From the IMG/VR virus record IMGVR_UViG_2526164631_000038: 43,688 bases of DNA; one strand, written 5' to 3'. A program made the translations under genes and the position numbers. The notes beneath the pieces are model-generated. The model searched no databases. It was not told the origin of the DNA and saw nothing but the letters and a program-made list of their open reading frames with translations. Each line of letters starts with the position of its first letter. The stretch's first letter is position 1. The DNA is from a virus (taxonomy: Duplodnaviria > Heunggongvirae > Uroviricota > Caudoviricetes). Positions 1,075-43,188 of this stretch are shown here, piece by piece.

Positions 1075-1098
1075 GACCGAACACGATTCCTGTTTTCG
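1075..1098. repeat. attL: left copy of the prophage attachment-site direct repeat (displaced original 3' end of sdsR)
   Basis: GACCGAACACGATTCCTGTTTTCG here versus GACCGAATACGATTCCTGTATTCG at 43093..43117 (22/24 identical). The preceding AAAAAGAGACC is the reverse complement of the native sdsR terminator tail. Confidence 0.75.
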
Positions 1099-1226
1099 TC
1101 AACAAACTACAAAATCTTTTAGAATTAATGTGTTAAATAAATTTCTGCTCATCTTTTAATCCCTAACACGTACCATTACATATTAATACATTCAATTAGT
1201 TACCATTTTTTTCGAGTTTTTTAGAG

Positions 1227-1240
1227 AAATTTTCGGGAAT
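1227..1240. promoter_or_regulatory. candidate integrase arm-type binding site
   Basis: AAATTTTCGGGAAT resembles the tandem AAATTTCGGGGA repeats next to attR at 43053..43075. Confidence 0.35.
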
Positions 1241-1397
1241 ATTTCAGGTCAATCCATGCATACACAAGCAATTCCTGTATTGAATAATTCCGTAGCAATT
1301 ATGTAAAATCATCTCCGGCTGATTTTCATTCAAACTCGCGCTATCGAACGTCCATCAGCCAGCCGTGGCACGTTCTTGCATACGACGTGCTACGGTT

Positions 1398-1952
1398 TCA
1401 TTTATCTCCGACTGGAAACTTCTTATACAAAGTCGATACGCCAACATCATAAATGATCGCCACCTTCTGGCGAGGAACTCCTGATGCAATTAATCGTCCG
1501 GCCTGTGCCCATTGTTCTGGTGTAAGTTTGGGACGTCGTCCACCAATTCGTCCCTGTGCGCGAGCAGCTTCCAGTCCTGCTTTTGTTCGTTCAACAATCA
1601 GTTCTCGTTCCATTTCAGCCAGGGCCCCCATCACATGAAAGAAAAAACGCCCCATCGGTGTGCTGGTATCAATAGCATCCGTCAGGCTGCGAAAATTAAC
1701 GCCACGTTCGCGCAACTCCTCAACCAGAATGACCAGATGCCGCATACTACGCCCCAGCCGATCCAGCTTCCAGACAACCAGAGTGTCACCTGCCGATAAT
1801 GTCCTGAGCAGTTTTTTCAGTCCCGGCCTTTCGGACTTTGTACCGCTTATCTTGTCTTCAAAAATCAGCTCGCATCCTGCACAGTTCAACGCATTACGTT
1901 GTAGATCGGTATTCTGGTCATTTGTTGATACGCGTACATAGCCAATAAGCAT
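1398..1952 (-). CDS. site-specific DNA invertase, serine recombinase of the Pin/Gin/Hin family
   Basis: Translation from MLIGYVRVSTNDQ... with catalytic-Ser motif and C-terminal HTH; 184 aa from the ATG at 1952, which has a GGGAGA Shine-Dalgarno. The longer 1988 start lacks one. Confidence 0.9.
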   Translation of the reverse strand: MLIGYVRVSTNDQNTDLQRNALNCAGCELIFEDKISGTKSERPGLKKLLRTLSAGDTLVVWKLDRLGRSMRHLVILVEELRERGVNFRSLTDAIDTSTPMGRFFFHVMGALAEMERELIVERTKAGLEAARAQGRIGGRRPKLTPEQWAQAGRLIASGVPRQKVAIIYDVGVSTLYKKFPVGDK

Positions 1953-2040
1953 GGTAGGTCTCCCTGACAAAAGCAGGAATGATGCCATTTGCTCGTTATT
2001 TCTGCATTTTCATAAACGTTGGTTTGGGAGAAGCGGCAAA

Positions 2041-2353
2041 ACGAAATGTGGGAACAGGGGAAAATCAGATACCTGATATGTCATCATATGCATCAGGTTC
2101 AGGCTGGCGAAAAATGCCAGATGGTTCAATTGAACAGTGGGGACGAATTAGTTTTCCTGGTGAACACGGGCCTGTATCCGCCAATGTTTCATTCCCAATT
2201 CCATTTACACAGACACCGGGCATTGTAATTGTGTGCGATGGTGGTTTCGGGGGCGGGAATATGTGGGGGGCGACCAACTGGAGCACTACCGGCTTCATAG
2301 CTCACTGCAATTATGGTCTTGAAGGTGGTGCGTTTTTCGCTAAGGGCTGGTAA
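2041..2353 (+). CDS. promoterless alternative tail-fibre C-terminal cassette (Sv'-like) inside the invertible segment
   Basis: Open frame without its own N-terminus. Encodes ...[12 protein letters not shown]..., whose NVGT block is homologous, in inverted orientation, to the NVGT near the C-terminus of the fibre gene at 3370..4215. Confidence 0.5.
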
Positions 2354-2796
2354 TGATGAAATATCTGTACGTAAACAACCTGGCATATCCTTACGAACTT
2401 CAGTCTCTTTATGTTGAAAAAGGTGAATGGCCTGAAGAAAAAGGTGTTGATATAGACGAAGTAATTTTCAGGGAATATTTCTATGATACACCACCAGAAG
2501 GAAAATACAGATGTGTCGGAGAGGATGGACTGCCTGCATGGGCAGATATTCCTCCACCAACACGTGAAGAACAAATTGCATCAGCCGAAACTAAAAAGCA
2601 GCAATTGATTAACCAGGCCAACGAATACATCAACAGTAAACAATGGCCAGGTAAAGCATCAATTGGTCGTCTGAAAGGTGAGGAACTGGCGCAATATAAT
2701 TTGTGGCTGGATTATCTGGACGCACTGGAACTGGTCGATACTTCCGGTGCGCCAGATATTGAATGGCCTACGCCTCCGGCAGTTCAGGCCAGATGA
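2353..2796 (+). CDS. tail fibre assembly protein, alternative copy (Tfa')
   Basis: 147-aa ORF; ATG overlaps the preceding stop (TAATG); C-terminal region typical of caudoviral Tfa chaperones; pairs with the Sv' cassette. Confidence 0.65.
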   Translation: MMKYLYVNNLAYPYELQSLYVEKGEWPEEKGVDIDEVIFREYFYDTPPEGKYRCVGEDGLPAWADIPPPTREEQIASAETKKQQLINQANEYINSKQWPGKASIGRLKGEELAQYNLWLDYLDALELVDTSGAPDIEWPTPPAVQAR

Positions 2797-3373
2797 CGTC
2801 CGGCGCTGTGCTGGTATCTGTTGCCGTCACCGCGTCAATGTAATCCAGCACAGCGTTAAGTCGGGTGTTTTCTGGCTGCGTCAGCTTCCGCCCAGCCTGT
2901 AATTTCAGTTGAATCAGACTAATGGAAGCCATTGCAGCATCAATCAGTGACTGACGCTGTGCTTCTGCCGCTTCGACTGCTGCGCTATGCTGTGCCTCAG
3001 TATCGGTCACCCATTTCTCACCATCCCATTTATCGTATGGCGTTAATGGAGCGATAGTGGTTGTATTTTCAGGGTAATCACCCGGAGCTGTGATTTCTTT
3101 TGATTCTCCTGTTTCAGTGCTATAGACCGTTTCACCGCGATGGTCTGGCACATATTCCCATGAGTTAAAATCTGCAGAACGGCAAATTGCATAACCAGCT
3201 TTATATGAGCCAGGAGCATCTAAACAGGAACATGCCGGGATACCGACACCCACAGCAAGATATTCAGTTGATGTGGAAATATATTCCCGTGTCTCACCAT
3301 CATAATTGTAAACGGTAATGTCTCCCGCCTTTGTGGTGATGAGTTCGCTATTTAATACAGCTTTATTCATCAT
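2768..3373 (-). CDS. tail fibre assembly protein (Tfa), currently expressed orientation
   Basis: 201-aa ORF directly downstream of the fibre gene; C-terminus resembles Tfa chaperones; convergent with Tfa'. Confidence 0.7.
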
Positions 3374-4215
3374 GCGGCCCTTACGATATAATTAAAAGCG
3401 ATGTTACGAGGACGAGTTTCTGTACCTACATTTTCACTAATTTCACCATAACGTTTAACACTACGAGAGCTAATAGCTCGTAGTGAGGAAGGCACATTAA
3501 GACCGGGTTCGTCCGTTTTAACTATTCCCCCGTCACCGTATGTAGCCAGTATTCCTGGGTTTACTCCTTCCCGTGCACTTCCTGCGGCGAGTCCGTCCCC
3601 TGTCCATAATTCCATATAGTGTGCATGGTCCAAAATTGTGTGTGGCTGCCAATTAAGCAAAGCGCGACCAGTATCAATCCCGCGACCGTCATCCCAGCCA
3701 CGAATAAATTCACCGCGTAAATCAGGCAATTTATTGGTCGGGTAAGCCTTTGCCAGTTCCGGGTATTCTTCAGCAGAAAAAGCCGCACCGTTGCATTTCA
3801 GCCAGCCTGTTGGCGGTGTGACTGAAGGCCACGGAACAGGCACACCAACAGGTAATGCAGAACCTTCTCCCAAACCAAGGTTTTCGAGAGCCGTTTGCAC
3901 AGTGCCATCCGATTTGATATCGCCAAACGGATTCTTGCGGCTCAGGTATTCAACAGCAAACCCCGATCCCAGCAATTCAACAAAACCGGGCAGATCACCA
4001 TTATCAAGCACATCCCGTTGCGTTTTGTCACTTACAAACTGGGCCAGAGCTGCAGCAATAAAGCTGGCCTGTCGAATGGCTTTGTTCACCTGCGCACTGG
4101 ATGCTTTCCCTGCTGTAAATCCGGATAAAAGCGCAGGCAACGCTTCCCATTCCTCCTGCGACATAACATTGGCATTTCGATCAGTTGCAAACGCTTTAAA
4201 GTCATTTTTCGCCAT
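3370..4215 (-). CDS. tail fibre protein
   Basis: Gly-rich beta-type sequence with a collar-like segment ([18 protein letters not shown]) and the C-terminal [16 protein letters not shown] typical of phage fibres; start MAKNDF at 4215 overlaps the upstream stop. Confidence 0.75.
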
Positions 4216-4895
4216 CAGAGTAATACTCCCCATGCTCCTACATCAAAACCACTGATGAATTCGTTATCCATATCAAAACCAAAAAATTTTGAGCCTTCCG
4301 ATGGGGTTTCCACCGAAGGAGTTTCAATGCCCCCCGCCCATACCCCGGCGGCTTTTACTGTGAGATACCCCTGTTTAATTGCCGCAATTAACTCACGCGA
4401 TACATCTGAAATATCAGTATCAGGAAAGACCCAGACCGATATCGTCATGTCCTGGTTATCGACTATCTGCATTCGCAGCCCGGATCCTGCTGTTGCCGCG
4501 TCAAGAATTGCCGGAAGCGAATCATTCCGTCCGTCCCAGTTATTAATCGCAATCTTCGCTTTAAGGATGACACGATAAGTTTCATCGCTGAGGTACATGT
4601 ATCCGGAATCAGGATCGTATGGTCCCTGCCATACACCCTGATCATATCCAAGCCCGTCGGTATCCCAGCTGAAATAAACACCTGAGATAGGCTGGCTGAC
4701 AACACGGCTACGTCCGATCCACAATCCCAGAATGTCAAGTTGCACACCAACCGCAGAGTCAATATCAAATGCAGTAATCAGCCCTCTGGTGGCCGCCGCA
4801 ACATCAATAAGCGGCCGGGTCATCAGATCAACATGTGCAAGAAATTTAGGTTTGGTGGCGTGGTAGTTCGTGATTAGTTCGGTGTATTTGCTCAT
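4215..4895 (-). CDS. baseplate protein (Mu gp48-like)
   Basis: 226-aa ORF between the baseplate J-like gene and the fibre gene, translationally coupled; position and size fit Mu gp48. Confidence 0.55.
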
Positions 4896-6091
4896 GACTC
4901 CACCGTTATAACGATATTTTCCGGGGTACAGGACGCAGATTCGTTGTATCTGATATCAATGTTTGATGACGACAAAGCCCCCGGAGATTTCCCAATCGTC
5001 AGTTCCTGAATATCGTAATAGCGTGCATTCCCGCCACTCACCACGCCAAGATTCGCCGGTGAGTAAATGCGACTTAAAAGGACCGAATCACCAATCATCA
5101 GACTATTGATATAGTCGGAAATAGCCTGCTGGATCTGCTGCCCTATCTGTGAGGTATAACCCGTAAAAACTTTTAATTTAATCCGGGCATAAACAGGCAC
5201 ATCACTGGAACGCGAGAATTTGATTACATGGGGATTGCCGTATTTATCCGGAACCGTAACGGATGTTGTACCGTGAGTGGCTGTCCCCTGGCCTTTATTC
5301 CCTCTGATAGCCTGAGCAATATCCATCACATCACCGCCATCCACAATTACAGCAACAGAGTGTGGCGGTAACCCGTTACCGTCCTCCGAACCAGTATCGT
5401 TTTCATAGAGTTTGTGGCGGGTTACACCGGTAACATTAGAAACAGCACCATCCAGTGCTTCAAATGGGGTTATTGATGGCAACGCAACACTTTGCGACTG
5501 GCGGATACGTAACTCCGCATCAGTTTCTGCCGGAGAGCCAACAGTAGCCGCAGCAGGATTAGTTACCGAAACCCAGCCACGGGTTGGCGTATTAATTTCA
5601 GTGATAGTTCCAGCCAGCGCCGCCACTGCACCACTGACGGAACATGTTGCGGTCGCCATCACTGTACCATCCACGCCGACCACCACTGAAGCAGGCAAAC
5701 GCCATATCACACTATTACTGTCTTTCACGCTGCCATTAATGATGGTTGTTCCGGCAGTTCCTGTAAGAAGCAAATCAACCGTAGAATTCGTCGCGCCTTT
5801 ACGTGAAATACCATTTATTTTCACGTTACTGGTCAGTGCGGCCCCATAGCCGGTTGCCGGTGAAAAACAGTTGTAGACAGTTATCGCAGTATTATTGGCA
5901 TCATGAATCGCCAGCGCCATCAGAGCCACCATCTGGCCGTCTTTACTATCCGGTTCGAGGTAGGCATCACTGCCATAAATCTGCTGAAAATAGCTAATCA
6001 GGGTGCTGAGTATCGTCTGATAATCAGGCGCACTGATCCCCTCCGCGGTTACCTTTGCAGATAAACCGAGAGAATCAAGGTTCAGAGCCAT
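4892..6091 (-). CDS. baseplate J-like protein (Mu gp47 / P2 gpJ family)
   Basis: 399-aa ORF with an N-terminus characteristic of Baseplate_J proteins as recalled; in conserved baseplate gene order. Confidence 0.7.
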   Translation of the reverse strand: MALNLDSLGLSAKVTAEGISAPDYQTILSTLISYFQQIYGSDAYLEPDSKDGQMVALMALAIHDANNTAITVYNCFSPATGYGAALTSNVKINGISRKGATNSTVDLLLTGTAGTTIINGSVKDSNSVIWRLPASVVVGVDGTVMATATCSVSGAVAALAGTITEINTPTRGWVSVTNPAAATVGSPAETDAELRIRQSQSVALPSITPFEALDGAVSNVTGVTRHKLYENDTGSEDGNGLPPHSVAVIVDGGDVMDIAQAIRGNKGQGTATHGTTSVTVPDKYGNPHVIKFSRSSDVPVYARIKLKVFTGYTSQIGQQIQQAISDYINSLMIGDSVLLSRIYSPANLGVVSGGNARYYDIQELTIGKSPGALSSSNIDIRYNESASCTPENIVITVES

Positions 6092-6444
6092 TACGCCTCC
6101 GATTTAACAGTCGTTATTCCATAGAGAGTGTCGATTTCAGCGGAAAACATGACACGTCGGGTCGTGGTATCCACCGTCGTATTGAAAGAGAGGATTGATT
6201 TAACGCCCCGCGTTTCGAGGATGCGCTTACGGATCGCCAGGTTGTAGGTTTCCGGCTTCTGCTTACCGAGCACAGACTGGATCCACGGGGTCCCTTCGGT
6301 GGTGTCGAGAAACCATTGCCCATACCACAATTCAAATCACGTTTTTACCGCCTGCGCCACGGCCTCCGGTGAGTTAATCAGCCAGGTGTCATCACCGCTG
6401 CCAAAGGTGTAATCGCCATCGGCGTCTTCACGTCTGTATCGCAT
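6091..6444 (-). pseudogene. small baseplate protein (Mu gp46-like) interrupted by an in-frame TGA
   Basis: ATG at 6444 overlaps the upstream stop (ATGA). Frame reads MRYRREDADGDYTFGSGDDTWLINSPEAVAQAVKT, then TGA at 6337..6339, then the same frame continues FELWYGQWFLDTTEGTPWIQSVLGKQ... to 6091. Confidence 0.6.
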
Positions 6445-7196
6445 CAGTTTACCCTATCGGTATTGCTTCCACCGCGCTGAACACCGCCATGAGTGTGCGT
6501 ATCATCGATTGGCTTGCCGTTAGCCTTCACGCTACCCAAAAACTCAACAGCACCAGTGATTTTTGAAGCCACACCAGAAACCACAGACCCCACCATGCCA
6601 CCCATCCAGGTTAACAGGCCATGAATGGTTACTTTCTCAGAAAAATCAGCCAGAGGGGCAACCACATCAAGACCACCCGGAGCGACAATTTTAATTTTCC
6701 TGGTATCAGGATTAAGCTCAAAATAGGTGCTGCCGTCGTCACTACGCAACTGTGTGGCACTGGTATTAATACCGCTAATCTTCCTCGCCTGCGACTGGGG
6801 ACCGACAATACAAAACGCATCCGATAAATCATGCATTCTGTCATCAACAGGCTCCTGTATCCCGCCGTTCTGCCACCAGAAATCAATACAACGATCGGCA
6901 AAAACAACAAGACACTCATCCCCGGCTTTAACCGGAAAAGTCAACGTACAGCCTCCGCCGCGCGGAAATACCACTGGCACATCCACCAGCAACGGGTAAT
7001 TTTTGGTAATGCGGTTACCGTCGTTATCCTTTTCAACCGAACGGATAGCTGGCTGCACAACCGCCGTCACCGCGTCGGGATCGAATGACTGAACAATGCC
7101 AGGCAAGGCGACACGGATCTGGTTCTTTGTGGTTTCCCGTTCAGATTTGAATGTTTCGGCAAGGTCGCCGCTGCGGGTCTGGTCAGATACTGCCAT
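6444..7196 (-). CDS. baseplate assembly protein V / spike (Mu gp45-like)
   Basis: 250-aa ORF; VVFPRGGGCTLTFPVKAGDECLVVF segment resembles the gpV OB-fold; in baseplate gene order. Confidence 0.7.
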   Translation of the reverse strand: MAVSDQTRSGDLAETFKSERETTKNQIRVALPGIVQSFDPDAVTAVVQPAIRSVEKDNDGNRITKNYPLLVDVPVVFPRGGGCTLTFPVKAGDECLVVFADRCIDFWWQNGGIQEPVDDRMHDLSDAFCIVGPQSQARKISGINTSATQLRSDDGSTYFELNPDTRKIKIVAPGGLDVVAPLADFSEKVTIHGLLTWMGGMVGSVVSGVASKITGAVEFLGSVKANGKPIDDTHTHGGVQRGGSNTDRVN

Positions 7197-7210
7197 TTAG
7201 TAGGCTCCAG

Positions 7211-7238
7211 AAAGCAAAAAACCCGCCGGGTGGCGGGT
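7211..7238 (-). terminator. rho-independent terminator after the moron gene
   Basis: Minus-strand hairpin CCCGCCACCCGGCGGG followed by TTTTTTGCTTT. Confidence 0.65.
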
Positions 7239-7255
7239 TCATTATTGAAGTTTCA

Positions 7256-7495
7256 TTACTGCTTGTTTGCTTCTAACGCTTCAGCTATTCGGCGAAGATA
7301 CTCATTGTTTTTAAATGAAACCATGATGCACTCAAAGAATATTCGGCAAAATACAGCACATAACAAAAGCACTAAAGCGCCAGCAGCCTTCCCATTAACA
7401 AACGTTATAATGGCGGCAACAACCAGAAGTAACATTGTGATGCCATACAGAACGTTGATGATTTTTGGAGTTATTAATTTATCAAATCCGAACAT
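7256..7495 (-). CDS. small integral membrane protein (moron)
   Basis: 79 aa with two hydrophobic helices (ITMLLLVVAAIITFV, GALVLLLCAVFCRIFF); no structural-gene character; followed by its own terminator. Confidence 0.6.
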   Translation of the reverse strand: MFGFDKLITPKIINVLYGITMLLLVVAAIITFVNGKAAGALVLLLCAVFCRIFFECIMVSFKNNEYLRRIAEALEANKQ

Positions 7496-7548
7496 GCGAC
7501 AAATTCCTTATCGTGAAAGTAGAAGTACCACATTATAATTACGAGTGA

Positions 7549-7890
7549 TTAATCAACAATCTTTTTGCATGGAAAGGAACCGATGATTTTCGGCGCATCC
7601 ATGCTGTTCTGCAGCAGTTGGACATTCAGGAATCGCGTTTCGGTACCAGGGCGACGAATGTATTCAAAGCCGTAGTTGTTACCGTCTTTGGCAGGCATAA
7701 GCCCCATGTCTACTTTCAAACCATTGGTACCCAGTTCGGTGATTTTTTGAGAGGTAACTCTTTCACCGTTGATTGTCGATAACTCGCCCTGGTTTGCAAC
7801 CATAGTGTAGCCACCGCATTTAACCGTGAAGCCATCCGCCCACGCGCTGCACGCAGAAAAGACAGCTAACAGAAAAATAATACCCCTCAT
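7549..7890 (-). CDS. secreted or lipoprotein-like small protein (moron)
   Basis: 113 aa; N-terminal signal peptide MRGIIFLLAVFSACSAWA; two Cys in the mature part; embedded between baseplate genes. Confidence 0.6.
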   Translation of the reverse strand: MRGIIFLLAVFSACSAWADGFTVKCGGYTMVANQGELSTINGERVTSQKITELGTNGLKVDMGLMPAKDGNNYGFEYIRRPGTETRFLNVQLLQNSMDAPKIIGSFPCKKIVD

Positions 7891-7893
7891 TGC

Positions 7894-8955
7894 TCATTCC
7901 CTTTGCAAAGCCGATTGCGTATACAGATCCGCCGCGCCACGCGCTTCGCACATCATATCCATGTACCACGCCTGGCCCCTTGTATCGCCAGTGTACATAA
8001 TCCCGCGCACAATATAAACGCCATCCGTTGCGATGCTGGCAGGCTGCGATGTGGTGCCGCTTAGCGTAATATTTCCGTCCGTGTTCTGGTCGGTGATCTG
8101 CCCACCAGCCATAGCGATATCGTTGTTCGACAACGCGGTGCGATATACGGAAGCCTGATCCAGTTGAATGAGCCCATTAACCCGGATGTTCGGATTAATA
8201 AGCGCGCGAACGTTTACGCCGTTGCCGATGGTCTGCTGCGGCATGCCAATAAGCCCGGTAGCGCTGTTGAGCACAATCGCTTCGTGAACATATTCATTAT
8301 TCGCCACCATCTGGCGCTGACCGTCTACGAATTGCCATGTTGCGCCACATTGCCCGGCTACGTTATCCATTAGATGCCGCGTCATGCCAAAGAGCACCCG
8401 CCCCCGGGGGAATACAGTAGCAGGCATTTCAGGCGTCAGGCCTTCGGTCGCACCTTTGGCTTCGAAGTCTTTCATCAGCGCACGGTTCACATCAGCGACC
8501 GTGTAACCGGCAGCCAGCGTCTGTGAGGTTATACTGGTGGCAAAAGCCAGATCAGTATCTGCTGCCTGAATCAGGACGTAGGAATCAACCGGACTGTCTT
8601 TTCCTGTAACCGAGTAGCGAATTTCACCGCTGAAAATCAGTCCGTAGTTGCGGCCATCACTCTGGCCCACGTCCGCCGCATCAACCTCCCGCACGATCCC
8701 GACGTCGCTTGCCGACACCTCCGGCGCGATACCGTCGTAACCCGCAATCAGACGCACTTTCGAAAACTCCCGCCCGGTGATTCGGTTCACAGTATCTGCC
8801 GAGAGGTTATAAATTTTGATAGTCCCTACCCGGGACGCGCTGCTGATGTTGAACCAGTCGATCGTAAAGGTCACTTTAAAATCACTTAGCTCAATTCCCT
8901 GACCGTTCCCGTCCACAAGCTGCAGCTCGAAATGTCTCATCCAGTTCTGTGACAT
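7894..8955 (-). CDS. tail/baseplate hub protein (Mu gpP-like)
   Basis: 353-aa ORF in Mu-like tail module order between the DNA-circulation-like and baseplate genes. Confidence 0.5.
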   Translation of the reverse strand: MSQNWMRHFELQLVDGNGQGIELSDFKVTFTIDWFNISSASRVGTIKIYNLSADTVNRITGREFSKVRLIAGYDGIAPEVSASDVGIVREVDAADVGQSDGRNYGLIFSGEIRYSVTGKDSPVDSYVLIQAADTDLAFATSITSQTLAAGYTVADVNRALMKDFEAKGATEGLTPEMPATVFPRGRVLFGMTRHLMDNVAGQCGATWQFVDGQRQMVANNEYVHEAIVLNSATGLIGMPQQTIGNGVNVRALINPNIRVNGLIQLDQASVYRTALSNNDIAMAGGQITDQNTDGNITLSGTTSQPASIATDGVYIVRGIMYTGDTRGQAWYMDMMCEARGAADLYTQSALQRE

Positions 8956-8957
8956 GC

Positions 8958-22727: not shown

Positions 22728-22729
22728 AC

Positions 22730-35019: not shown

Positions 35020-35047
35020 TACCATCATCATATGACACTCACCACAA

Positions 35048-35088
35048 AACACATATCGTGTTGACATAAGAAAACGCATTGTGTTTAA
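35048..35088 (+). promoter_or_regulatory. pL-like promoter with operator
   Basis: TTGACA-17-TTTAAT; palindrome AACACATATCGTGTT (35048..35062) overlaps the -35 and shares its AACAC/GTGTT arms with the pR operator. Confidence 0.55.
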
Positions 35089-35263
35089 TAAGCATATCCA
35101 AACAACGCCCCACCAGAGAACGGCAGGACAATACCTCGAGTTATCCAGCCACTGAACAGGGCTAAGTAGCCAGCCTGAGGCATACGAACATGACGGCAGT
35201 TGTTGATTGATACAAAGCGCAGTAGATAAAACGTTCCGCCACCCGGCGTTAAGGGGAAAAAAG

Positions 35264-35482
35264 ATGGTTGGTGAAGATCTGGTTGTTATTAACGGTCAAT
35301 TGTGCAGCAAAGATGTGGCAGCCATGCTTATTAGCAAGGTTCTTCCAACTGTGCTGGATGTCATTGCAGAAAAAGTAAAGGCTGGTCGTCCAGACAAGGA
35401 AGTTGAAGAGGCGGCAAAAACAGTTGTTCATGCCGCTACAGAAGCAATTATTTTGAAGAGCCTAGTTTCGCCCAAGCCTTAA
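35264..35482 (+). CDS. small early-left protein (72 aa)
   Basis: ATG preceded by AAGGGGA; first ORF after the pL-like promoter. Confidence 0.4.
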   Translation: MVGEDLVVINGQLCSKDVAAMLISKVLPTVLDVIAEKVKAGRPDKEVEEAAKTVVHAATEAIILKSLVSPKP

Positions 35483-35642
35483 GTGAATCGGCGCTTTTTT
35501 TAGCATCACGTTCATTGAGTAGTGACAAAAACTCATTCTCAGCATTCTCGATTTCCGAGAAAAATTCTTGATGAGTTGTTTCTCGCTGCGATCTGATGCT
35601 GAAAGCTAAAGCAAGTAGCCAGGCTTTGTCTTTATTATCCAT
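35448..35642 (-). CDS. small protein (64 aa) antisense to the early-left operon
   Basis: ORF with weak Shine-Dalgarno; convergent with and overlapping the preceding gene. Confidence 0.3.
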   Translation of the reverse strand: MDNKDKAWLLALAFSIRSQRETTHQEFFSEIENAENEFLSLLNERDAKKSADSLKAWAKLGSSK

Positions 35643-36037
35643 CGGAATACCTTATTACTGGTTGTGTGAGAACTCCAGTATACCACCGAGCCTGAAGTGG
35701 TAAAAAGACAGGCGCACAACACGAAGGCGCATTTCCGGTATTCATAAAGAGTCGGTCTTGTCTGTTAAATTTAAATGGTGGGAGTGCGCCTCCGGTTGTA
35801 AATAACGACATTGCTATGTGTAGTCTTTGGCGGCATCAGTTCTACTCCGTGGCTGCCCTGTCGCCCCTTTTTAAAGTGAATTTTGTGATGCGGTGAATGC
35901 GGCTAAGCGCACGCGGCACAGTTAAAAGCATCAGTGTTATGGGTGGATTATCCGGCGTTAATTGTTAACTGGTTAACGTCACCTGGAGGCACCAGGCACC
36001 GCATCGACAAAATTCATTTGTAAAAATGGAGATAATT

Positions 36038-36259
36038 ATGATTGCTCATCACTTCGGAACTGATGAAATACCACGTCAGTGTGTGACCCCTGGCGATTAT
36101 GTTCTTCATGAAGGTCGGACATATATCGCCTCGGCAAACAATATTAAAAAGCGAAAACTTTATATTCGTAGCCTGACTACAAAAACATGCATTTCTGACT
36201 GCATGATTAAAGTCTTCCTCGGTCGTGATGGTTTACCTGTAAAGGCGGAGTCATGGTAA
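36038..36259 (+). CDS. small early protein, 73 aa; candidate KilR-like cell-division inhibitor by size and position
   Basis: GGAG Shine-Dalgarno before the ATG at 36038; same length and position as kilR in Rac. Sequence identity not verified. Confidence 0.4.
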
Positions 36260-36502
36260 TGACTAAGAAATAAAATGTGCTTATCACCTTTGCAATAAAG
36301 AAATTGAAGAAAGCAAAATCATTACAAGACCACTTCATTTCATGCGTGGAGTTATACCAACGACGGAAATGAAAAAATATTGTAGTGAAAGTTGTGCCGA
36401 AAAAGACCAGATGGCACACGAACTTTAATTAACTGACTATTCGAAACTGAATTTATGCCAGCAATGGCAGGGATTCGCTCAACCTTAATTAAGGAGAAAA
36501 AC

Positions 36503-36778
36503 ATGATTACCAGTTATGAAGCCACTGTTGTAACTACTGATGACATTGTTCACGAGGTTAATCTGGAAGGAAAGCGTATTGGCTACGTGATTAAAACAGA
36601 AAATAAAGAAACCCCATTCACTGTGGTTGATATCGACGGTCCATCAGGCAACGTTAAAACACTTAACGAAGGCGTCAAAAAAATGTGCCTGGTGCATATC
36701 GGAAAGAATCTGCCCGCAGAAAAAAAAGCCGGATTTCTGGCAACTCTGATTGCAATGAAATTAAAAGGTGAAATCTGA
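36503..36778 (+). CDS. small early protein, 91 aa (RacC-like position)
   Basis: AAGGAGAAAAAC Shine-Dalgarno; immediately upstream of the RecE-like gene. Confidence 0.45.
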   Translation: MITSYEATVVTTDDIVHEVNLEGKRIGYVIKTENKETPFTVVDIDGPSGNVKTLNEGVKKMCLVHIGKNLPAEKKAGFLATLIAMKLKGEI

Positions 36779-36878
36779 AAGAAATAGCCTGCGTATGGCG
36801 CAGGCTATGAACAGTGTGTATCCGGCAAGATTATTCACTGAACAAACGAATTTTAATCTGAGTTGAGGTTAAAAAACA

Positions 36879-39800
36879 ATGAGCACCGATAAACAAGTTT
36901 ACCCACTGTATTACGAAGCAAAAAATGACAAAGTAAGAAAACGTCTCGGTATTAAAGGCGGTTTTTACTGGGCTGAAGCGAAAAAATTATCCATTGCCAT
37001 CTCCCGTGGTGCTGTTGCAATTGACGATGCTGGCTACGATGAAGATGACTTCAAAAAACCTGTTCGCGTCAATTTGCCCATTGTTGATGACCTCCCGCCA
37101 GAAGGCGTATTTGATACGGAATTCTGCAACCGTTACGAAAAAGGCGGGGAAGATGGCATCACAATGGTATTTATCGCGCCCTCCCCCTCTGCGCAGGGCA
37201 AACCAGCCAGCACTGACAACACCAATGTTAATGGCGAAGACATGACGGAGATTGAGGAGAATATGCTACTTCCGATTTCTGGCCAGGAGCTGCCCATTCG
37301 CTGGCTTGCTCAACACGGCAGCGAAAAACCAGTAACGCACGTTTCACGCGACGAACTCCAGGCATTACACATTGCACGGGCTGAAGAACTACCGGCTGTT
37401 ACTGCCCTGGCTATTTCGCATAAAACCAGTCTGCTCGACTCGCTGGAGATTCGCGACCTCCACAAACTGGTTCGTGACACTGACAAAGTTTTCCCTAATC
37501 CTGGTAATTCAGACCTGGGACTAATAACTGCTTTTTTCGAAGCATACCTGGACGCTGACTACACTGATCGGGGTCTGCTGACAAAAGAGTGGATGAAAGG
37601 AAATCGTGTTTCACGCATCACCCGCACGGCTTCCGGTGCTAATGCTGGCGGTGGGAACAAAACCGATCGCAATCCGAATTTAGTACACACCCTCGACACA
37701 CTGGATGTGGAGATTGCAGCAGCCACACTTCCGATGGATTTTAATATTTATGAAATTCCGGGCAGCGTTTATCGTCGCGCAAAAGAAGTAGTCCTGAACA
37801 AAGAAAGTCCGTTCAAAGAATGGTCCGCAGCACTTCGTGCAACCCCGGGTATTCTGGACTATTCCCGCGCCGCTATTTTTGCACTTATCCGAAGCGCACA
37901 CCCTGAATTTTATCACTACCCGGGACGCCTTCAGGGGTATATCAACGCCTATTTGACGGAAACTGATCACGAGAACCCCAGCAAGGAAACTCTCACAGCT
38001 GCCCGGCATACGCCGGAAAAAGATATCCTGGAAGAAATTAACCGCGAGGTGGTTACTGAGCGTGAAACAGAAGAAGAAAAACCACAACCATCTGACGCAA
38101 TGGCAGGTGAACAGGCAACAACTGAAACAATGGAACCGGATACAACTGAACATGGCCAGAACGCGCAGTCGCTGGATGCTCAGTCGCAGGTGAGTTCCGC
38201 TAACCAAGTAAAAGTCACCGCTGACGAAGTAAACAAAATTATGCAGGCAGCCAATATCAGCCAGCCTGACGCCGATAAGTTACTTGCTGTATCGCGTGGT
38301 GAATTTGTTGAGGGGATTAGCGACCCTAATGATCCGAAATGGGTCAAGGGGATCCAGACTCGCGATTCTGTGAACCAGAACCAGCATGAATCGGAACGGA
38401 ACGACCAAAAAGCGGAACAAAACAGCCCAAATGCGTTACAAAACGAGCCAGAAACGAAACAATCCGAACCAGTAGCGCAACAGGAACCGGAAAAAGTCTT
38501 CACCGCCTGCGGTCAGAGCGGTGGCGGCAACTGCCCTGATTGTGGCGCGGTGATGGGCGACGCAACATACCAGGAAACATTCGATGAAGAGAATCAGGTT
38601 GAAGTTCAGGAAAATGATCCGGAGGAAATGGAAGGTGCTGAACATCCGCACAAGGAGAACGCTGGCAGCAATCCGCATTGCGATTGCAGTGATGAAGCTG
38701 GTGAAGCGACAGCACCTGTAGTAACTGAAATCATGTGGCCGTCATATTTCGAGCCTGGCCGCTATGAAAACCTCCCGAACGAGGTTTATCACTCCGCCAA
38801 CGGAATAAGCAGCACAATGCTGAAGGATGCCCGCATCAGCCTGATGTATTACCACGGACGGCACATTGCCGGAACTATTCTGGGCGAGGAAAGTGATGCA
38901 TTGCTGCGTGGGCGGATTATTCACAGCTATGTTCTGGAAACGGATAAATTCGCTGATGAGTATGCCATTCCGGTACCGGTTCCTGAATATGTGGTTACTA
39001 CTTCTAACGAACTGATCGCCATCATTAAAAAACACAATGCCAGTCTGCCAGCACTGATGACACCAGAGCAGATGAAAGAGTGGATCGAAAGCTACAACAG
39101 CACTCTTATACAGCCACTGTCGGTAAGTGCCGGGGCCGAAGAAACAGGCATCCTTTACGGTTCGCTTCCGGAGGAATTCCGGCGTATTCCTGAGGGGGAA
39201 AAACACACAGCATCAGCAATGAAAGCCTGTATTAAAGAATACAACGCAAGCCTCCCTCCTCTGCTGAAAGCCAGTGGAACACGGGAGCAGCTCCTGGAGC
39301 AAATTGAAACTGTAGATCCAGAACTGGCAAAAAAAGAACGTGCTAAATCTTTGCCTTACAACATCAGTGGCACAAAAGAGCAATTAACCGAAATCGCCCG
39401 GAAAATTCGCCCGGAACTGGTGACACTGGAGGACTGGCAAAAATGCCAGCAAGAAGAAAACGCCGGGAAAACGTTTATCAGTCCGGATATGTATGAACAG
39501 GCAAAAAATATTCACGCAGCACTGCAAAACAATACTGATGCAGCAAGGCTACTCAACCACCCGGATCGCAAATCTGAAATCAGCTATTTCGGGTTTGATG
39601 AAGAAACCGGGCTGGAAATCAGGGTCCGTCCTGATATCGAAATCCGGCTGCCATACGAAAGCATTTGCGCCGACGTGAAGTCAGTCAGCCTCGGTTATGT
39701 GCGACAGGAACGACTGAAAGATCGCCTGCACCGTGAAATTATTGAGCGTGATTATCACCTCAGCGCAGCAATGTATTGCGATGTGGCAAACCTGGACAAA

Positions 39801-40022
39801 TTTTTCTGGATCTTCGTCAACAAAGATGCTGGCTATCACTGGGTGGCCGTCGTGGAAGCCTCGCAGGAACTCCTGGAACTTGGTCGACAGGAATATCGCC
39901 GGACGCTACGACAGATAAACGAAGCTCTGGAGACAAACAACTGGCCAGCACCGATTACCGAAAGTTATACCGACGAATTAAACGACTTTGATCTTCGTCG
40001 TCTTGAAGCACTGAGCATCTGA
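36879..40022 (+). CDS. recE: RecE-like exonuclease VIII (PD-(D/E)xK C-terminal domain) with long acidic N-terminal/middle region
   Basis: 1047-aa ORF; C-terminal ...IRVRPDIEIRLPYESICADVKSVS... nuclease-like motif; followed by a RecT-family gene as in Rac. Confidence 0.65.
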   Translation: MSTDKQVYPLYYEAKNDKVRKRLGIKGGFYWAEAKKLSIAISRGAVAIDDAGYDEDDFKKPVRVNLPIVDDLPPEGVFDTEFCNRYEKGGEDGITMVFIAPSPSAQGKPASTDNTNVNGEDMTEIEENMLLPISGQELPIRWLAQHGSEKPVTHVSRDELQALHIARAEELPAVTALAISHKTSLLDSLEIRDLHKLVRDTDKVFPNPGNSDLGLITAFFEAYLDADYTDRGLLTKEWMKGNRVSRITRTASGANAGGGNKTDRNPNLVHTLDTLDVEIAAATLPMDFNIYEIPGSVYRRAKEVVLNKESPFKEWSAALRATPGILDYSRAAIFALIRSAHPEFYHYPGRLQGYINAYLTETDHENPSKETLTAARHTPEKDILEEINREVVTERETEEEKPQPSDAMAGEQATTETMEPDTTEHGQNAQSLDAQSQVSSANQVKVTADEVNKIMQAANISQPDADKLLAVSRGEFVEGISDPNDPKWVKGIQTRDSVNQNQHESERNDQKAEQNSPNALQNEPETKQSEPVAQQEPEKVFTACGQSGGGNCPDCGAVMGDATYQETFDEENQVEVQENDPEEMEGAEHPHKENAGSNPHCDCSDEAGEATAPVVTEIMWPSYFEPGRYENLPNEVYHSANGISSTMLKDARISLMYYHGRHIAGTILGEESDALLRGRIIHSYVLETDKFADEYAIPVPVPEYVVTTSNELIAIIKKHNASLPALMTPEQMKEWIESYNSTLIQPLSVSAGAEETGILYGSLPEEFRRIPEGEKHTASAMKACIKEYNASLPPLLKASGTREQLLEQIETVDPELAKKERAKSLPYNISGTKEQLTEIARKIRPELVTLEDWQKCQQEENAGKTFISPDMYEQAKNIHAALQNNTDAARLLNHPDRKSEISYFGFDEETGLEIRVRPDIEIRLPYESICADVKSVSLGYVRQERLKDRLHREIIERDYHLSAAMYCDVANLDKFFWIFVNKDAGYHWVAVVEASQELLELGRQEYRRTLRQINEALETNNWPAPITESYTDELNDFDLRRLEALSI

Positions 40023-40033
40023 GGAAGGACACA

Positions 40034-41086
40034 ATGAACGAATTAACTCAACAAGAAAATATTAACTCTAATGTTGCGGTTTTCAGCCCTCAGTCCCTGG
40101 CTGCAATTCAGACATTTTCCCAGGTAATGGCTTCCGGCATGGCTACTGTACCGGAACACCTCCGGGGAAATCCATCAGACTGCATGGCCATCACCATGCA
40201 GGCGATGCAGTGGCAAATGAACCCTTACGCAGTAGCTCAGAAAACTTTCGTTGTGAATGGTGTGCTCGGATATGAAGCGCAACTGGTTAATGCCGTAATC
40301 AGTACTCGTGGGCCGCTAACCGGGCGTATTGAATATGACTGGTTCGGGCCGTGGGAAAAAATTATCGGGAAATTTGAAATTAGGAAGAACGACAAGGGGA
40401 AAGAATATCGTGTACCTGGCTGGAAGCTGGCCGATGAAAACGGGATCGGAGTTCGCGTCCAGGCAACACTACGCGGAGAGAGCAAGCCACGCGTACTGGA
40501 GTTACTTCTGGCGCAGGCCAGAACACGTAACTCAACGTTATGGGCCGATGATCCTCGCCAGCAGCTTGCCTATCTGGCACTGAAACGCTGGGCGCGCCTT
40601 TATTGCCCTGAAGTGATTCTTGGAGTGTACACCCGGGACGAACTGGACGAACCACAGGAAAAAATCATTAATCCGGTTCAGGAACATAAAAATACATCCG
40701 CCTGCCGTGCGGAACGTGAAACAACAATTATTGAGCAGGATGCCGGGGAAAACTGGATCAGTGCTTTCCGTGAACGTATTGAGCAGGCACAAAGCACCGG
40801 AGAAACAACATCACTTCGCCAGGAAGTGGAAGATCATAAAAATACTCTTGGCGCTCTCTACACAGAACTTAAAGGAAAAGTGGTTCAGCGTCATCACCGT
40901 CTCAATGCTATTGCCCGTATTGAGACGATGATAAATGACCTGCCTTCATCAGGTGATCCAGAAGCAGAACAAAAATTTATTGCTCTGGAAAATACGCTGA
41001 ATGCTGCACGACCACATCTGGGAGAATTATATGAGGCGTATAAAACGACACTGACAGATATGAAACCAGAATATATCGGCTCCTGA
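40034..41086 (+). CDS. recT: RecT/Red-beta family single-strand annealing protein
   Basis: 350 aa; ...QQLAYLALKRWARLYCPEVILGV... resembles the conserved Bet/RecT core; operon partner of the exonuclease. Confidence 0.7.
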   Translation: MNELTQQENINSNVAVFSPQSLAAIQTFSQVMASGMATVPEHLRGNPSDCMAITMQAMQWQMNPYAVAQKTFVVNGVLGYEAQLVNAVISTRGPLTGRIEYDWFGPWEKIIGKFEIRKNDKGKEYRVPGWKLADENGIGVRVQATLRGESKPRVLELLLAQARTRNSTLWADDPRQQLAYLALKRWARLYCPEVILGVYTRDELDEPQEKIINPVQEHKNTSACRAERETTIIEQDAGENWISAFRERIEQAQSTGETTSLRQEVEDHKNTLGALYTELKGKVVQRHHRLNAIARIETMINDLPSSGDPEAEQKFIALENTLNAARPHLGELYEAYKTTLTDMKPEYIGS

Positions 41087-41149
41087 TATTTACTATGGCG
41101 GTGTAGCCTCACCGCCATAACAAAACTTTATTTTATGAGAGAAAAGACA

Positions 41150-41344
41150 ATGCGGTATGAAAAAGTCAAACCATGTCCGTTTTGTGGTTGTCCATCAGTA
41201 ACGGTGAAAGCCATTTCAGGATATTACCGCGCAAAGTGTAACGGATGCGAATCCCGAACCGGCTATAGTGGAAGTGAAAAAGAAGCACTCGAAAGATGGA
41301 ATAAACGAACTACTGGAAATAATAATGGAGGTGTTCATGTATAA
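41150..41344 (+). CDS. lar: Lar-family restriction alleviation protein
   Basis: 64 aa from MRYEKVKPCPFCGCP...CNGCESR, a zinc-ribbon of the Lar/RalR type; Rac-like position. Confidence 0.65.
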   Translation: MRYEKVKPCPFCGCPSVTVKAISGYYRAKCNGCESRTGYSGSEKEALERWNKRTTGNNNGGVHV

Positions 41345-41525
41345 AATTACTGCCACTATTGAAAAGGAAGGTGGCACTCCTACTAACTGGACAAGATATT
41401 CAAAATCTAAATTAACGAAATCAGAATGCGAAAAAATGCTCTCAGGGAAAAAAGAAGCAGGCGTTTCCAGAGAGCAGAAAGTAAAGCTGATAAATTTTAA
41501 TTGCGAGAAACTTCTGTCCTCGTGA
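41337..41525 (+). CDS. small hypothetical protein (62 aa)
   Basis: ATG preceded by GGAGG; between lar and xis. Confidence 0.4.
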   Translation: MYKITATIEKEGGTPTNWTRYSKSKLTKSECEKMLSGKKEAGVSREQKVKLINFNCEKLLSS

Positions 41526-41625
41526 GTTGCATTATATACAAATTAGAACTTCATAGCTGATTATTAAAAATCAACCACATCCGCCAGTATTCTGTATATT
41601 TACTGGCGGTCATATCGTAAGAGGT

Positions 41626-41913
41626 ATGGCAATGAATCTTGTGACACTCAAAACGTGGGGAAAACTCAGATATCCGGATAACCCACCATCAATATCAACG
41701 CTGAGACGATGGGCAAGGAATGGAAACATTTATCCTGCACCTGAACTACACGGGAGGAGTTACAGGGTGGTTCCGGAGGCTTTCTATATCAACCCAAATA
41801 AGGTTGATACCGATATAACACACCATCAGCCTAATGGGCGACAAGGGAGAGACAGTCCGTTACTGGAGAAGTTAAAACATGCAGCGGAAAAAATACGATC
41901 CCAATTTGCCTAA
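41626..41913 (+). CDS. xis: excisionase-like protein
   Basis: 95-aa ORF immediately upstream of and overlapping the integrase; ...SISTLRRWARNGNIYPAPELHGRSYRVVPEAFYINP resembles lambdoid Xis. Confidence 0.6.
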   Translation: MAMNLVTLKTWGKLRYPDNPPSISTLRRWARNGNIYPAPELHGRSYRVVPEAFYINPNKVDTDITHHQPNGRQGRDSPLLEKLKHAAEKIRSQFA

Positions 41914-42955
41914 AAACTTAACATATCGAAGGAGGGACAAAGCATATTACTGGCGCAACCCTCTGACGAAAGAAGAATTTACACTAGGTAAAATTTCAAG
42001 AAGAGATGCAGTAGCGCAGGCAATTGAAGCAAATCATTATATATACAAAAACTACTCTCCTGCTGCCTTAATTGAAAAGCTTAAAGGGTTCGACTCATTT
42101 ACTATGGCAGACTGGATTGAACGTTACAAAACGATTCTTATAAGGAGAAAAGTGTCCAGAAATACTTATAAAATTCGGGTAAATCAACTGGAGACAATAA
42201 AAGAAAAATTGGGAGAGATTTTACTGACAGAAATAACCACTCGCCATATTGCCGAGTTTCTTGATTTGTGGATTGAAGGAGGGAAAAACACAATGGCAGG
42301 ATCAATGCGTTCTGTGTTGTCTGATATGTTTCGTGAGGCCATTGTTGAAGGACGTATATCTCAAAATCCAGTAACACCAACAAGAGCACCGAAAATAGTA
42401 GTTACAAGAGAACGACTGAAACTAAAGACATACAACTGCATCAGGGAGGCAGCAGATCAACTTCCGGCATGGTTCCCATTAGCTATGGATTTAGCCCTTG
42501 TAACAGGACAACGTCGCGAAGACATAACGAATATGCGGTTTAGTGATATTTATGATGATCGTCTCCACATCAGGCAAATTAAGACAGGAATGATGATTGC
42601 TATCCCCCTGTCACTCAGCCTTCCTGTCGCTGGTCTACGGCTTGGTACAGTAGTTGAACAGTGCCGCCTGGTAAGCCGGGGAGATTATCTAATCAGTGCC
42701 GGGATTAGAAAAAACAGCCCTGACGGCAGCATTCACCCGGATGGCCTGACAAAAAAATTTGTCGCAGCCAGAAAATTAACAGGTATCCAGTTCAGTGAAA
42801 ACCCACCAACTTTTCACGAGATCAGAAGTCTGGCTGGACGATTGTACAAAGAAACATGTGGAGAAGAATTTGCTCAGCGTCTACTTGGCCACACATCGGA
42901 GAAGACAACAAAAATGTACCTTGATGAGAGAGAAAAAACGTACGTACTGCTCTGA
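41879..42955 (+). CDS. int: tyrosine site-specific integrase
   Basis: 358 aa; C-terminal catalytic region ...[13 protein letters not shown]...[18 protein letters not shown] with the R...HxxR...Y pattern; adjacent to attR. Confidence 0.9.
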
Positions 42956-43023
42956 TTTTAACGTAAATGGATTGTTAAATGTATTTTGGTTGTGATATAA
43001 CCAAAAAAGACCGGAATACAGAA

Positions 43024-43049
43024 ATTCGAGTAAATTTCGGGGAATTTCG
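43024..43049. repeat. degenerate extra copy of the sdsR 3'-end/att sequence
   Basis: AAAAAAGACCGGAATACAGAAATTCG resembles AAAAAAGACCGAATACGATTCCTG at 43087..43110. Confidence 0.4.
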
Positions 43050-43052
43050 GGG

Positions 43053-43075
43053 AGACGTTTACAACTGATTGATTT
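43053..43075. promoter_or_regulatory. tandem direct repeats, candidate integrase arm-type sites
   Basis: AAATTTCGGGGA followed by ATTTCGGGGAG, between the integrase and the att core; a similar motif is at 1227..1240. Confidence 0.45.
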
Positions 43076-43086
43076 TAAATACAATT

Positions 43087-43188
43087 AAAAAAGACCGAAT
43101 ACGATTCCTGTATTCGGTCCAGGGAAATGGCTCTTGGGAGAGAGCCGTGCGCTAAAAGTTGGCATTAATGCAGGCTTAGTTGCCTTGC
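43087..43188 (-). ncRNA. sdsR: SdsR (RyeB) small RNA
   Basis: Minus-strand sequence GCAAGGCAACTAAGCCTGCATTAATGCCAACTTTTAGCGCACGGCTCTCTCCCAAGAGCCATTTCCCTGGACCGAATACAGGAATCGTATTCGGTCTTTTTT matches SdsR as recalled, including the terminator hairpin; CTATTCT -10 just upstream. Confidence 0.85.
43093..43117. repeat. attR: right copy of the attachment-site repeat, forming the present 3' end of sdsR
   Basis: GACCGAATACGATTCCTGTATTCG matches the attL copy at 1075..1098 with two mismatches. Confidence 0.75.

Follow-up and report, generated by a model that had tools for sequence, protein, structure and literature searches.

In 2008, phages that integrate into the final ~23 bp of the small-RNA gene ryeB and alter ryeA were described in Salmonella (Balbontin, Figueroa-Bossi, Casadesus and Bossi, J Bacteriol), according to passages of PMC7380047, PMC3333887 and PMC3603311. 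These three articles also cite that study for the ryeA/ryeB locus as an insertion hotspot, so the preliminary description of the DNA considered here was right to call the hotspot reported. Passages of PMC7380047 further relate that lysogeny at the same site in Salmonella lowers ryeA and raises ryeB.

We analysed a window of 43,688 nucleotides (the whole of IMG/VR record IMGVR_UViG_2526164631_000038), in which a prophage lies between the Escherichia coli host genes pphA and yebY. Our reading, to which we assign a probability of about 0.93, is that a temperate phage entered an attB consisting of the Rho-independent terminator of sdsR (ryeB) by lambda-type site-specific recombination, with sdsR rebuilt and RyeA and pphA separated from their promoters. 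The site is the one used by PhiW104 and the other ryeA/ryeB hotspot elements of Salmonella, as far as the available passages describe them, namely the ryeB terminator, internal to ryeA; in PhiW104-type lysogeny those passages have the 5' part of ryeA replaced and ryeB left complete, and the 24-bp repeat of the present prophage spans that terminator hairpin. Unlike the PhiW104 case, the host is E. coli, and beyond the prophage lies pphA, a gene that depends in K-12 on read-through from the sdsR promoter; judged by the same passages, the phage also differs, being a mosaic whose early region is Rac-like and whose late genes are of the contractile-tail kind.

Two other described systems resemble this one. 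Phages that use tRNA and tmRNA genes (P4, P22 and HK022-type sites; Williams 2002, as excerpted in PMC3603311) likewise target the 3' stem-loop of a small stable RNA and, in that account, carry a copy of the displaced 3' segment that keeps the gene functional, as here. Unlike those targets, the sdsR/ryeA locus is transcribed on both strands, so repair of the sdsR strand unavoidably truncates the RyeA unit on the opposite strand and uncouples the downstream gene that depends on read-through. The likeness to lambda extends to an integrase with catalytic, central and arm-binding domains, an adjacent xis, transcription of int toward the attachment site, an interval between int and the core that holds tandem arm repeats together with a match to the IHF consensus, and an inverted-repeat core with a 7-bp spacer. 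The core sequence differs, and the target is a small-RNA terminator rather than the gal-bio intergenic site. Compared with lambda, the arm repeats (ATTTCGGGG) also partly resemble the core half-site (ATTCGG), and the arm contains, 84 bp in, an additional candidate half-site of core-like sequence.

The prophage is thus a clear E. coli example of an event already known from Salmonella, and the idea itself is not new. Literature searches on sdsR with attB and on yebY, pphA and prophage returned no E. coli description of the site. What the locus offers is a clean, fully resolved E. coli case of a phage using a small-RNA terminator hairpin as its attachment site, with junctions, attP and species-wide frequency defined.

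Prophage junctions and the rebuilt sdsR gene

Alignment to the uninterrupted pphA-sdsR-yebY region of K-12, the check recommended in the preliminary description, gave matches to window positions 1-1098 (99.2% identity, ending at 1098) and 43084-43688, with complete identity over 345 bases from 43101 rightwards. K-12 positions 1603-1635 (segment L001) are common to both flanks, and the core is single-copy in K-12. The left flank contains an intact pphA (protein phosphatase 1; 277..933, minus strand), assigned from K-12 identity and the RefSeq annotation of a near-identical strain, and the right flank contains yebY (43347..43688, minus strand), assigned from the K-12 comparison and RefSeq annotation.

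When searched with up to three mismatches, the degenerate 24-mer GACCGAAYACGATTCCTGTWTTCG matched the window twice only, at 1075-1098 (GACCGAACACGATTCCTGTTTTCG) and 43093-43116 (GACCGAATACGATTCCTGTATTCG), the two copies being identical at 22 of 24 positions; none of 100 shuffled windows contained a match. That these repeats are the prophage junctions, as first proposed, is borne out by the K-12 match stopping exactly there, by int and xis adjoining the right copy and by the presence of the attP in a phage genome. The right copy had been correctly located, but its end was placed at 43117, one base past the end of the 24-mer.

The left junction, attL (1075..1098), reads GACCGAACAC-GATTCCT-GTTTTCG, its left part host and its right part phage, and the AAAAAGA preceding it gives the K-12 tail AAAAAGAGACC. 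It had been described as carrying a native-looking terminator tail: the sequence is native, but the hairpin is destroyed (-4.9 kcal/mol, no better than shuffles). Since the hybrid hairpin on the minus strand folds no better than shuffled sequence, we rejected a working terminator at attL.

The right junction, attR (43093..43119), is the sdsR terminator hairpin itself, GACCGAATAC-GATTCCT-GTATTCGGTC, a perfect 10-bp inverted repeat with a 7-nt spacer, of which the left stem arm, together with the A-run to its left, is phage sequence. The complete sdsR gene lies at 43086..43185 on the minus strand, matching positions 1-100 of the 100 in Rfam model RF00111 (115.2 bits against a gathering score of 38). 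The core, 43093-43116, falls inside this full-length match, in agreement with the proposal that the right copy is fused to an otherwise intact sdsR. The last 16-26 nt of the gene are phage DNA, and the rebuilt terminator, which also appears among the listed terminator-like sites, has a predicted stability of -15.8 kcal/mol (z = -3.8), the same as in K-12; the phage does, as had been suggested, rebuild the sdsR 3' end.

Host and phage alleles delimit the exchange. Since attL keeps a host C and carries a phage T, and attR carries a phage T and keeps a host A, strands were exchanged within ACGATTCCTGT, an 11-bp block that includes the 7-nt terminator loop between the 10-bp inverted stem arms. Among the IMG/VR junctions, the same allele pattern surrounds this block in all left junctions from E. 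coli and in almost all right junctions. By analogy with lambda, the stem arms would be the two core-type integrase sites and the 7-nt loop the overlap region; the data by themselves confine the exchange to the 11-bp block, and a 7-bp overlap is the assignment that lambda suggests.

The adjoining genes suit such a reaction. A lambda-type tyrosine integrase (41879..42955, plus strand; Pfam Phage_integrase, 61.6 bits; Phage_int_M; Arm-DNA-bind_1, 28.1 bits, cut-off 22) ends 137 bp from the core and is transcribed toward the right junction, on the strand that also encodes RyeA; it is accompanied by an excisionase (41626..41913, plus strand; Pfam PF07825 Exc, E = 6.5e-14). The phage attP brings a near-copy of the left arm of the hairpin and its A-run, and integration regenerates, at the right junction, a complete sdsR with a terminator predicted to be equally stable.

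Attachment-site arms and integrity of the prophage

Joining the two phage arms gives a predicted attP of 919 nt, of which positions 3-809 are found unbroken in phage PP818812 at 92% identity (TACAATTAAAAAAAGACCGAATACGATTCCTGTTTTCGTCAACAAAC); the core of Salmonella phage ZC-S1_prp is the same (GACCGAATACGATTCCTGT). The integrase-distal arm (1099..1397) is ~92% identical to phage pPE4, where it is unbroken with the core. It contains ATTTCG-type motifs near 1206-1252 and, at 1271-1281, an exact second copy of the 11-mer ATTCCTGTATT, for which 0.05 occurrences are expected in the whole window and which is without a same-place counterpart in pPE4.

The integrase-proximal arm is richer in motifs. 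A partial core-like element (42995..43025, plus strand) consists of ATATAACCAAAAAAGACCG followed by GAATACAGAAAT; its first part, 42995-43013, is a true partial copy of the left half of the core and an 84% direct repeat of 43079-43097. The element is 92% complementary to 43104-43115 and is kept in several diverged arm types, and at IMG/VR locus L053 a deletion fuses it to the core. Three tandem 10-11-bp repeats, GAAATTCGAGT, AAATTTCGGGG and AATTTCGGGG, follow at 43021..43052 on the plus strand, with two exact copies found, and ATTTCG motifs stand at -50, -60 and -71 from the core across many different arm types, the diversity of which was sampled by an IMG/VR scan with the core pattern. The tandem repeats are probably arm-type binding sites of the integrase, which has an arm-binding domain. 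The motif AATTTCGGGG was not enriched across the whole window; its significance comes from its conserved position in other phages, not from within-window counts. Nearest the core is a promoter-like site facing it (43058..43085, plus strand; TTTACA, 16 nt, TACAAT), which scores 10/12 and is overlapped by an IHF-consensus match on the minus strand (43062-43074).

These motifs bear on the earlier suggestion that successive elements integrated at the small-RNA gene and left degenerate copies at 1271-1282 and 43024-43049 as older junction scars. The exact core 11-mer at 1271-1281 and the partial copy of the core left half at 42995-43013 could be read in this way, and repeated acquisition of foreign DNA at this locus is reported for Salmonella (PMC3333887). 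The window, however, holds one coherent prophage with one left and one right junction, and two core copies rather than the at least three junction-type copies that would separate elements or remnants. The 1271 motif is not conserved in pPE4, and only this first of the two 'further degenerate copies' stands, as an exact 11-mer; 43024-43049 is tandem 10-11-bp repeat and holds no core copy, the true partial copy being at 42995-43013. The integrase-side motifs are shared by unintegrated attP (pPE4) and by diverged Salmonella phages (ZC-S1_prp); their presence in free attP, with constant spacing from the core across numerous diverged arm types, marks them as phage-borne features and not host scars. 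Serial integration is therefore largely refuted and very improbable; we favour a single prophage, with the extra motifs belonging to the phage attachment site.

The body of the prophage (1099..43092, ~42 kb) combines, by RefSeq annotation, SEN34-like contractile-tailed late genes with a Rac-like early region (recET, kilR, ralR/RalA). Escherichia phages vB_EcoM-611R5 and 606R2 match the late region at 97% identity, and Rac-SA53 and pPE4 match the early region at 93-94%. At the left end lies a Pin-type DNA invertase (1398..1988, minus strand; Pfam Resolvase and HTH_7; pinE in RefSeq), transcribed toward pphA. One in-frame stop interrupts a baseplate-module gene (6091-6444), which may leave the prophage unable to form infective particles.

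The stop, in a gene of 117 codons that RefSeq also annotates as carrying an 'internal stop', could indicate a fixed defective remnant that entered by the route described but neither excises nor forms particles now, leaving the junctions permanent and the locus permanently rewired; the presence of very similar copies across many unrelated serotypes is consistent with this. Yet int, xis and both arms are intact, and the other apparent frameshifts of the RefSeq strain are homopolymer differences absent from the window. The tail-fibre segment occurs in both orientations in near-identical genomes, so Pin is active, and phage records deposited under vB_EcoM names share 97% identity with the late region. 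On balance a fixed remnant is improbable.

Prophages of this type are a minority in the species. Among 5,426 complete E. coli genomes, the site is uninterrupted in 5,191 and the K-12 attB allele is present exactly in 5,100; this integrase and right junction occur in 228 (~4%) and this left junction in 224. An integrase scan of genome contigs found two close loci only, in Shigella flexneri and E. coli.

RyeA, pphA and the host circuit

The start of ryeA in K-12 has been mapped experimentally and is sigma-70-dependent (PMC6610125). This start (L001 position 1567) maps to window position 1030, 45 bp left of the core, and an orphaned RyeA 5' part runs from it to the crossover block (1030..1093, plus strand), with the native promoter just upstream, and points into the prophage. 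Between 900 and 1450 the plus strand showed no terminator-like site. The body and terminator of RyeA (SraC) lie on the other side of the prophage at 43101..43319 (plus strand), the K-12 3' end mapping to 43319; the Rfam match to RyeA (RF00101, 172.9 bits, 43083-43226) begins only at 43083. This body holds all of the SdsR-complementary sequence, follows int and has phage DNA in place of its own promoter upstream. A K-12-type RyeA unit has its sigma-70 promoter and start 38 nt beyond the sdsR 3' end and continuous with the body; here the two parts are 42 kb apart, which confirms the split described earlier and makes a full-length native RyeA, running unbroken from the K-12 start into sdsR, impossible with this geometry.

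RyeA could now arise only from the phage-borne promoter-like site or by read-through from int. One alternative is functional replacement, in which the sigma-70 promoter of the phage arm (43058-43085) starts a chimeric RyeA at ~43092 that covers all of SdsR and restores the antisense regulator, much as the sdsR terminator is restored. The score of 10/12, the correct position and orientation, the location of everything SdsR-complementary downstream and the lack of a terminator-like site between int and the core are consistent with this, and available passages of PMC7380047 report ryeA as reduced, and do not report it as abolished, in Salmonella lysogens. Against it, the hexamers are weaker in most relatives of the same arm type (TTTGCA, sometimes with TGCAAT for TACAAT) and absent from other arm types targeting the same site; the overlap with the IHF-consensus match in AT-rich DNA means that the site may be fortuitous, and chance alone would give roughly one site of this kind in the 550 bp concerned. 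Because it occurs in one arm type only, and there usually in weaker form, we keep a phage-supplied promoter as a rival that we consider unlikely and do not adopt it.

In the reading that we prefer, integration has moved pphA in its entirety, together with the native promoter of ryeA and the initial ~60 nt of RyeA, 42 kb away from sdsR and the ryeA body. In K-12, pphA is transcribed by read-through from the sdsR promoter (PMC6610125); that promoter is now 42 kb away, and any transcription of pphA would have to come from the prophage, with read-through from pin as one example. Of the consequences considered here, this uncoupling is the only one that we did not find discussed in the literature covered.

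We tentatively propose, while holding the opposite outcome to be somewhat likelier, that the sdsR/ryeA/pphA circuit is rewired in three ways in ~4% of E. coli, by a changed SdsR partner, an orphaned ryeA promoter and a prophage-dependent pphA. If so, SdsR would be without its native antisense partner, transcribed from a sigma-70 promoter, and without the accompanying transcriptional interference; it would be opposed instead by a chimeric RyeA that starts at a phage promoter or results from read-through of int. Transcription from the orphaned ryeA promoter would enter the prophage in antisense orientation to pin, and pphA, having lost both reported promoters, would depend on prophage transcription, since the left junction is no longer a terminator. 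Lysogens and non-lysogens, which differ in the retention of the RyeA promoter and in the coupling of pphA to the sdsR promoter, form a convenient natural test bed for these effects, by which lysogeny would alter a sigma-S-dependent stress regulator and a phosphatase without a dedicated phage-encoded factor.

Integration junctions at sdsR

The window is Escherichia coli chromosome carrying a prophage of ~42 kb between two host flanks. Positions 1-1098 are 99.2% identical to the K-12 yebW-pphA region and positions 43084-43688 are 98.3% identical to the K-12 sdsR/ryeA-yebY region; in K-12, both host flanks are contiguous. With up to three mismatches allowed, the degenerate 24-mer GACCGAAYACGATTCCTGTWTTCG matches the window solely at 1075-1098 (left junction) and 43093-43116 (right junction), with no matches in shuffled sequence and two positions differing between the copies; this pattern search found the repeat coordinates in the preliminary description to be accurate to within one base. 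Five lines of evidence, including the integrase and excisionase genes given below, concur that the core repeats are integration junctions. K-12 identity ends at 1098 on the left flank and begins at 43084 on the right, so that positions 1603-1635 of the uninterrupted K-12 pphA-sdsR-yebY segment (L001) are common to both flanks. Joining the two phage arms over the core gave a predicted attP, which was used as a query against phage genomes and is present in a single unbroken piece in PP818812 (92% identity, sequence TACAATTAAAAAAAGACCGAATACGATTCCTGTTTTCGTCAACAAAC); one Salmonella phage record has an identical core with diverged arms. The site is uninterrupted in 5191/5426 complete E. coli genomes, with the integrase/right junction of this type in 228 and the left junction in 224 of the 5426. 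A core-pattern scan of IMG/VR returned at least 120 stretches, and 90 among the matches listed are right junctions (phage arm, core, sdsR body) with many distinct arm types.

The prophage is annotated gene by gene in FDAARGOS_1059, a near-identical lysogen (O111:H2 strain 12A is another). The window departs from FDAARGOS_1059 in the orientation of a tail-fibre segment, which is inverted and has two further differences inside it, and elsewhere in one substitution and four single-base indels. Close to the right junction, on its prophage side, are genes for an excisionase (41626-41913) and a tyrosine integrase (41879-42955), the latter with catalytic, central and lambda-type arm-binding domains; the matching place at the left junction is taken by a Pin-type invertase. 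Rfam matches include full-length SdsR (43185-43086, minus strand), RyeA (43083-43226, plus strand) and, inside the prophage and all above gathering thresholds, RalA (antitoxin of RalR, 41343-41521), sok (28056-28231) and DicF (35815-35866).

Exchange point, sdsR 3' end and arm sites

The K-12 attB allele (...AAAAAGAGACCGAACACGATTCCTGTATTCGGTCC...) is exact in 5100/5426 genomes and is thus the species norm. At the left junction, host C is retained in GAACAC and phage T is present in CTGTTTTCG; at the right junction, phage T is present in GAATAC and host A is retained in CTGTATTCG. This allele pattern places the exchange within the 11-bp block ACGATTCCTGT (1083-1093, 43101-43111), which includes the 7-nt terminator loop GATTCCT between the arms of a perfect 10-bp inverted repeat, GACCGAATAC / GTATTCGGTC. 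By analogy with lambda integrase, the stem arms would be two core-type integrase sites and the loop the overlap region.

That the prophage rebuilds the sdsR 3' end, as first proposed, is borne out: phage DNA supplies the final 16-26 nt of SdsR (from 43086 to 43101-43111), the remainder of the gene being identical to K-12. Compared to K-12, the stem has an A-U pair in place of one G·U, and the tail reads UCUUUUUU instead of UCUCUUUUU; terminator stability is predicted to be equal (-15.8 kcal/mol in both), and the complete RNA has the same predicted fold. The A-run encoding the SdsR U-tail, at 43087, has six A in the window and seven in FDAARGOS_1059 and the phage genome pPE4 (PP818812.1), which may be true length variation of this homopolymer or may stem from sequencing.

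Further degenerate core copies had been described at two places. The one at 1271-1281 is an exact 11-mer core match, showing no conservation in pPE4, while 43024-43049 instead consists of three tandem 10-11-bp repeats. Many diverged arm types carry ATTTCG-like repeats at distances of 50, 60 and in some cases 71 bp from the core, and free attP has such repeats too; because the integrase has an arm-binding domain, the tandem repeats are most simply read as candidate arm-type integrase binding sites. A true partial copy of the core left half lies at 42995-43013, within a near-palindrome extending to 43025, and is kept across arm types. None of these extra motifs separates a second element, leaving the suggested serial integration unsupported for the window.

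Among the IMG/VR matches listed (L008-L127), the same sdsR hairpin is targeted by at least ten clearly distinct types of integrase-proximal arm, which come from several integrase lineages. All have ATTTCG-like tandem repeats ~50-70 bp from the core; the arm repeat resembles the core half-site ATTCGG. In one such locus (L053, IMGVR_UViG_2728369554_000022), the 84-bp stretch that separates the core from the partial core-like element (equivalent to window 43014-43097) is missing, and the arm repeats are gone with it. This deletion looks like recombination between the two AAAAAAGACCG copies, and it would probably block excision of that prophage.

Other prophage features

A 1.87-kb invertible tail-fibre segment (2014-3883), bounded by 20-bp inverted repeats and adjoining pin, has the opposite orientation to that in FDAARGOS_1059; since the two genomes are near-identical, Pin-mediated switching appears active. 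Codon 36 of a 117-codon baseplate-module gene (6091-6444, minus strand) is an in-frame stop, and RefSeq marks the gene's counterpart in the related strain as 'internal stop'; the prophage may have lost tail building, or ribosomes may read through the stop. Two convergent, overlapping genes beside the hok/sok module (28056-28231) match PADLOC models PD-Lambda-2_C (28619-29716, plus strand, E = 3e-41) and 'cll' (29676-30254, minus strand, E = 3e-28), are called 'beta family' and 'sce7726 family' by RefSeq, and are a candidate pair of cargo genes for anti-phage defence. PP818812.1 is recorded as 'Actinobacillus phage vB_Apl-pPE4'. It has in common with this E. coli prophage, at 92-94% identity, the integrase, a Rac-like early region and an attP that targets the sdsR terminator of enterobacteria; the Actinobacillus host given in the record looks doubtful.

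Consequences for RyeA and pphA

In K-12, mapping by primer extension and RACE gave ryeA a sigma-70 promoter and an RNA of 272 nt (PMC6610125). The annotated K-12 ryeA start, 38 nt past the sdsR 3' end, corresponds to window position 1030, left of the left junction. The native promoter and about the first 55-65 nt of RyeA therefore remain next to pphA, facing into the prophage, and no terminator-like site was found within 400 bases onward from this 5' part; a transcript from the orphaned promoter would run antisense to pin. Behind the co-directional int, the right junction holds the SdsR-complementary part of RyeA together with its terminator (to 43319). These positions support the original claim about RyeA and allow it to be put more strongly than at first. 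In Salmonella, lysogeny at this site lowered ryeA and raised ryeB (an alternative name for sdsR), as summarized in reviews (PMC7380047); carried over to E. coli, this would predict higher or earlier SdsR and lower RyeA.

A phage promoter might restart the transcript: a sigma-70-like site facing the core (TTTACA-16 nt-TACAAT, 43058-43085) matches the consensus at 10/12 positions and would start a chimeric RyeA at ~43092, covering all of SdsR. We keep this as a less likely rival reading: the site is weaker in most relatives with the same arm type, is missing from other arm types and overlaps an IHF-consensus match.

At its 5' end, the Rfam RyeA consensus reads AAUUAAAAAAAGACCG, which agrees with the phage-derived right junction seen with this arm type (43083-43097) and not with the K-12 sequence GAUAAAAAGAGACCG; the model also begins almost exactly at the junction. 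Its seed therefore probably includes lysogen-type sequences, stopping where insertions break conservation.

An effect on pphA is a consequence absent from the preliminary description. K-12 pphA is transcribed mainly via read-through from the sdsR promoter, and the older reported pphA promoter is located on that side too, at a still greater upstream distance (PMC6610125); in the window, both are 42 kb away from pphA. From this geometry and the published K-12 data, we predict that pphA is uncoupled from the sdsR promoter and that its stationary-phase induction is lost. The hybrid hairpin formed at the left junction is unstable on the pphA-sense strand (-4.9 kcal/mol, no better than shuffles), so prophage-exiting transcripts from pin could reach pphA.

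Salmonella phage PhiW104, as described in papers citing Balbontin et al. 2008 (PMC7380047, PMC3333887, PMC3603311), has its integration site in the final ~23 bp of ryeB, a position internal to ryeA, and affects both RNAs; according to the same papers, that study termed the locus a hot spot. On these accounts, mechanism and locus are the same as in the E. coli window. RyeB-named islands appear in a later catalogue (PMC10111431), and the E. coli case was not described in any paper that the literature search turned up. The prophage in sdsR is thus a correct and well-resolved finding of an already known kind, with modest added value: the exact E. coli core, a species frequency of ~4% and the predicted uncoupling of pphA.
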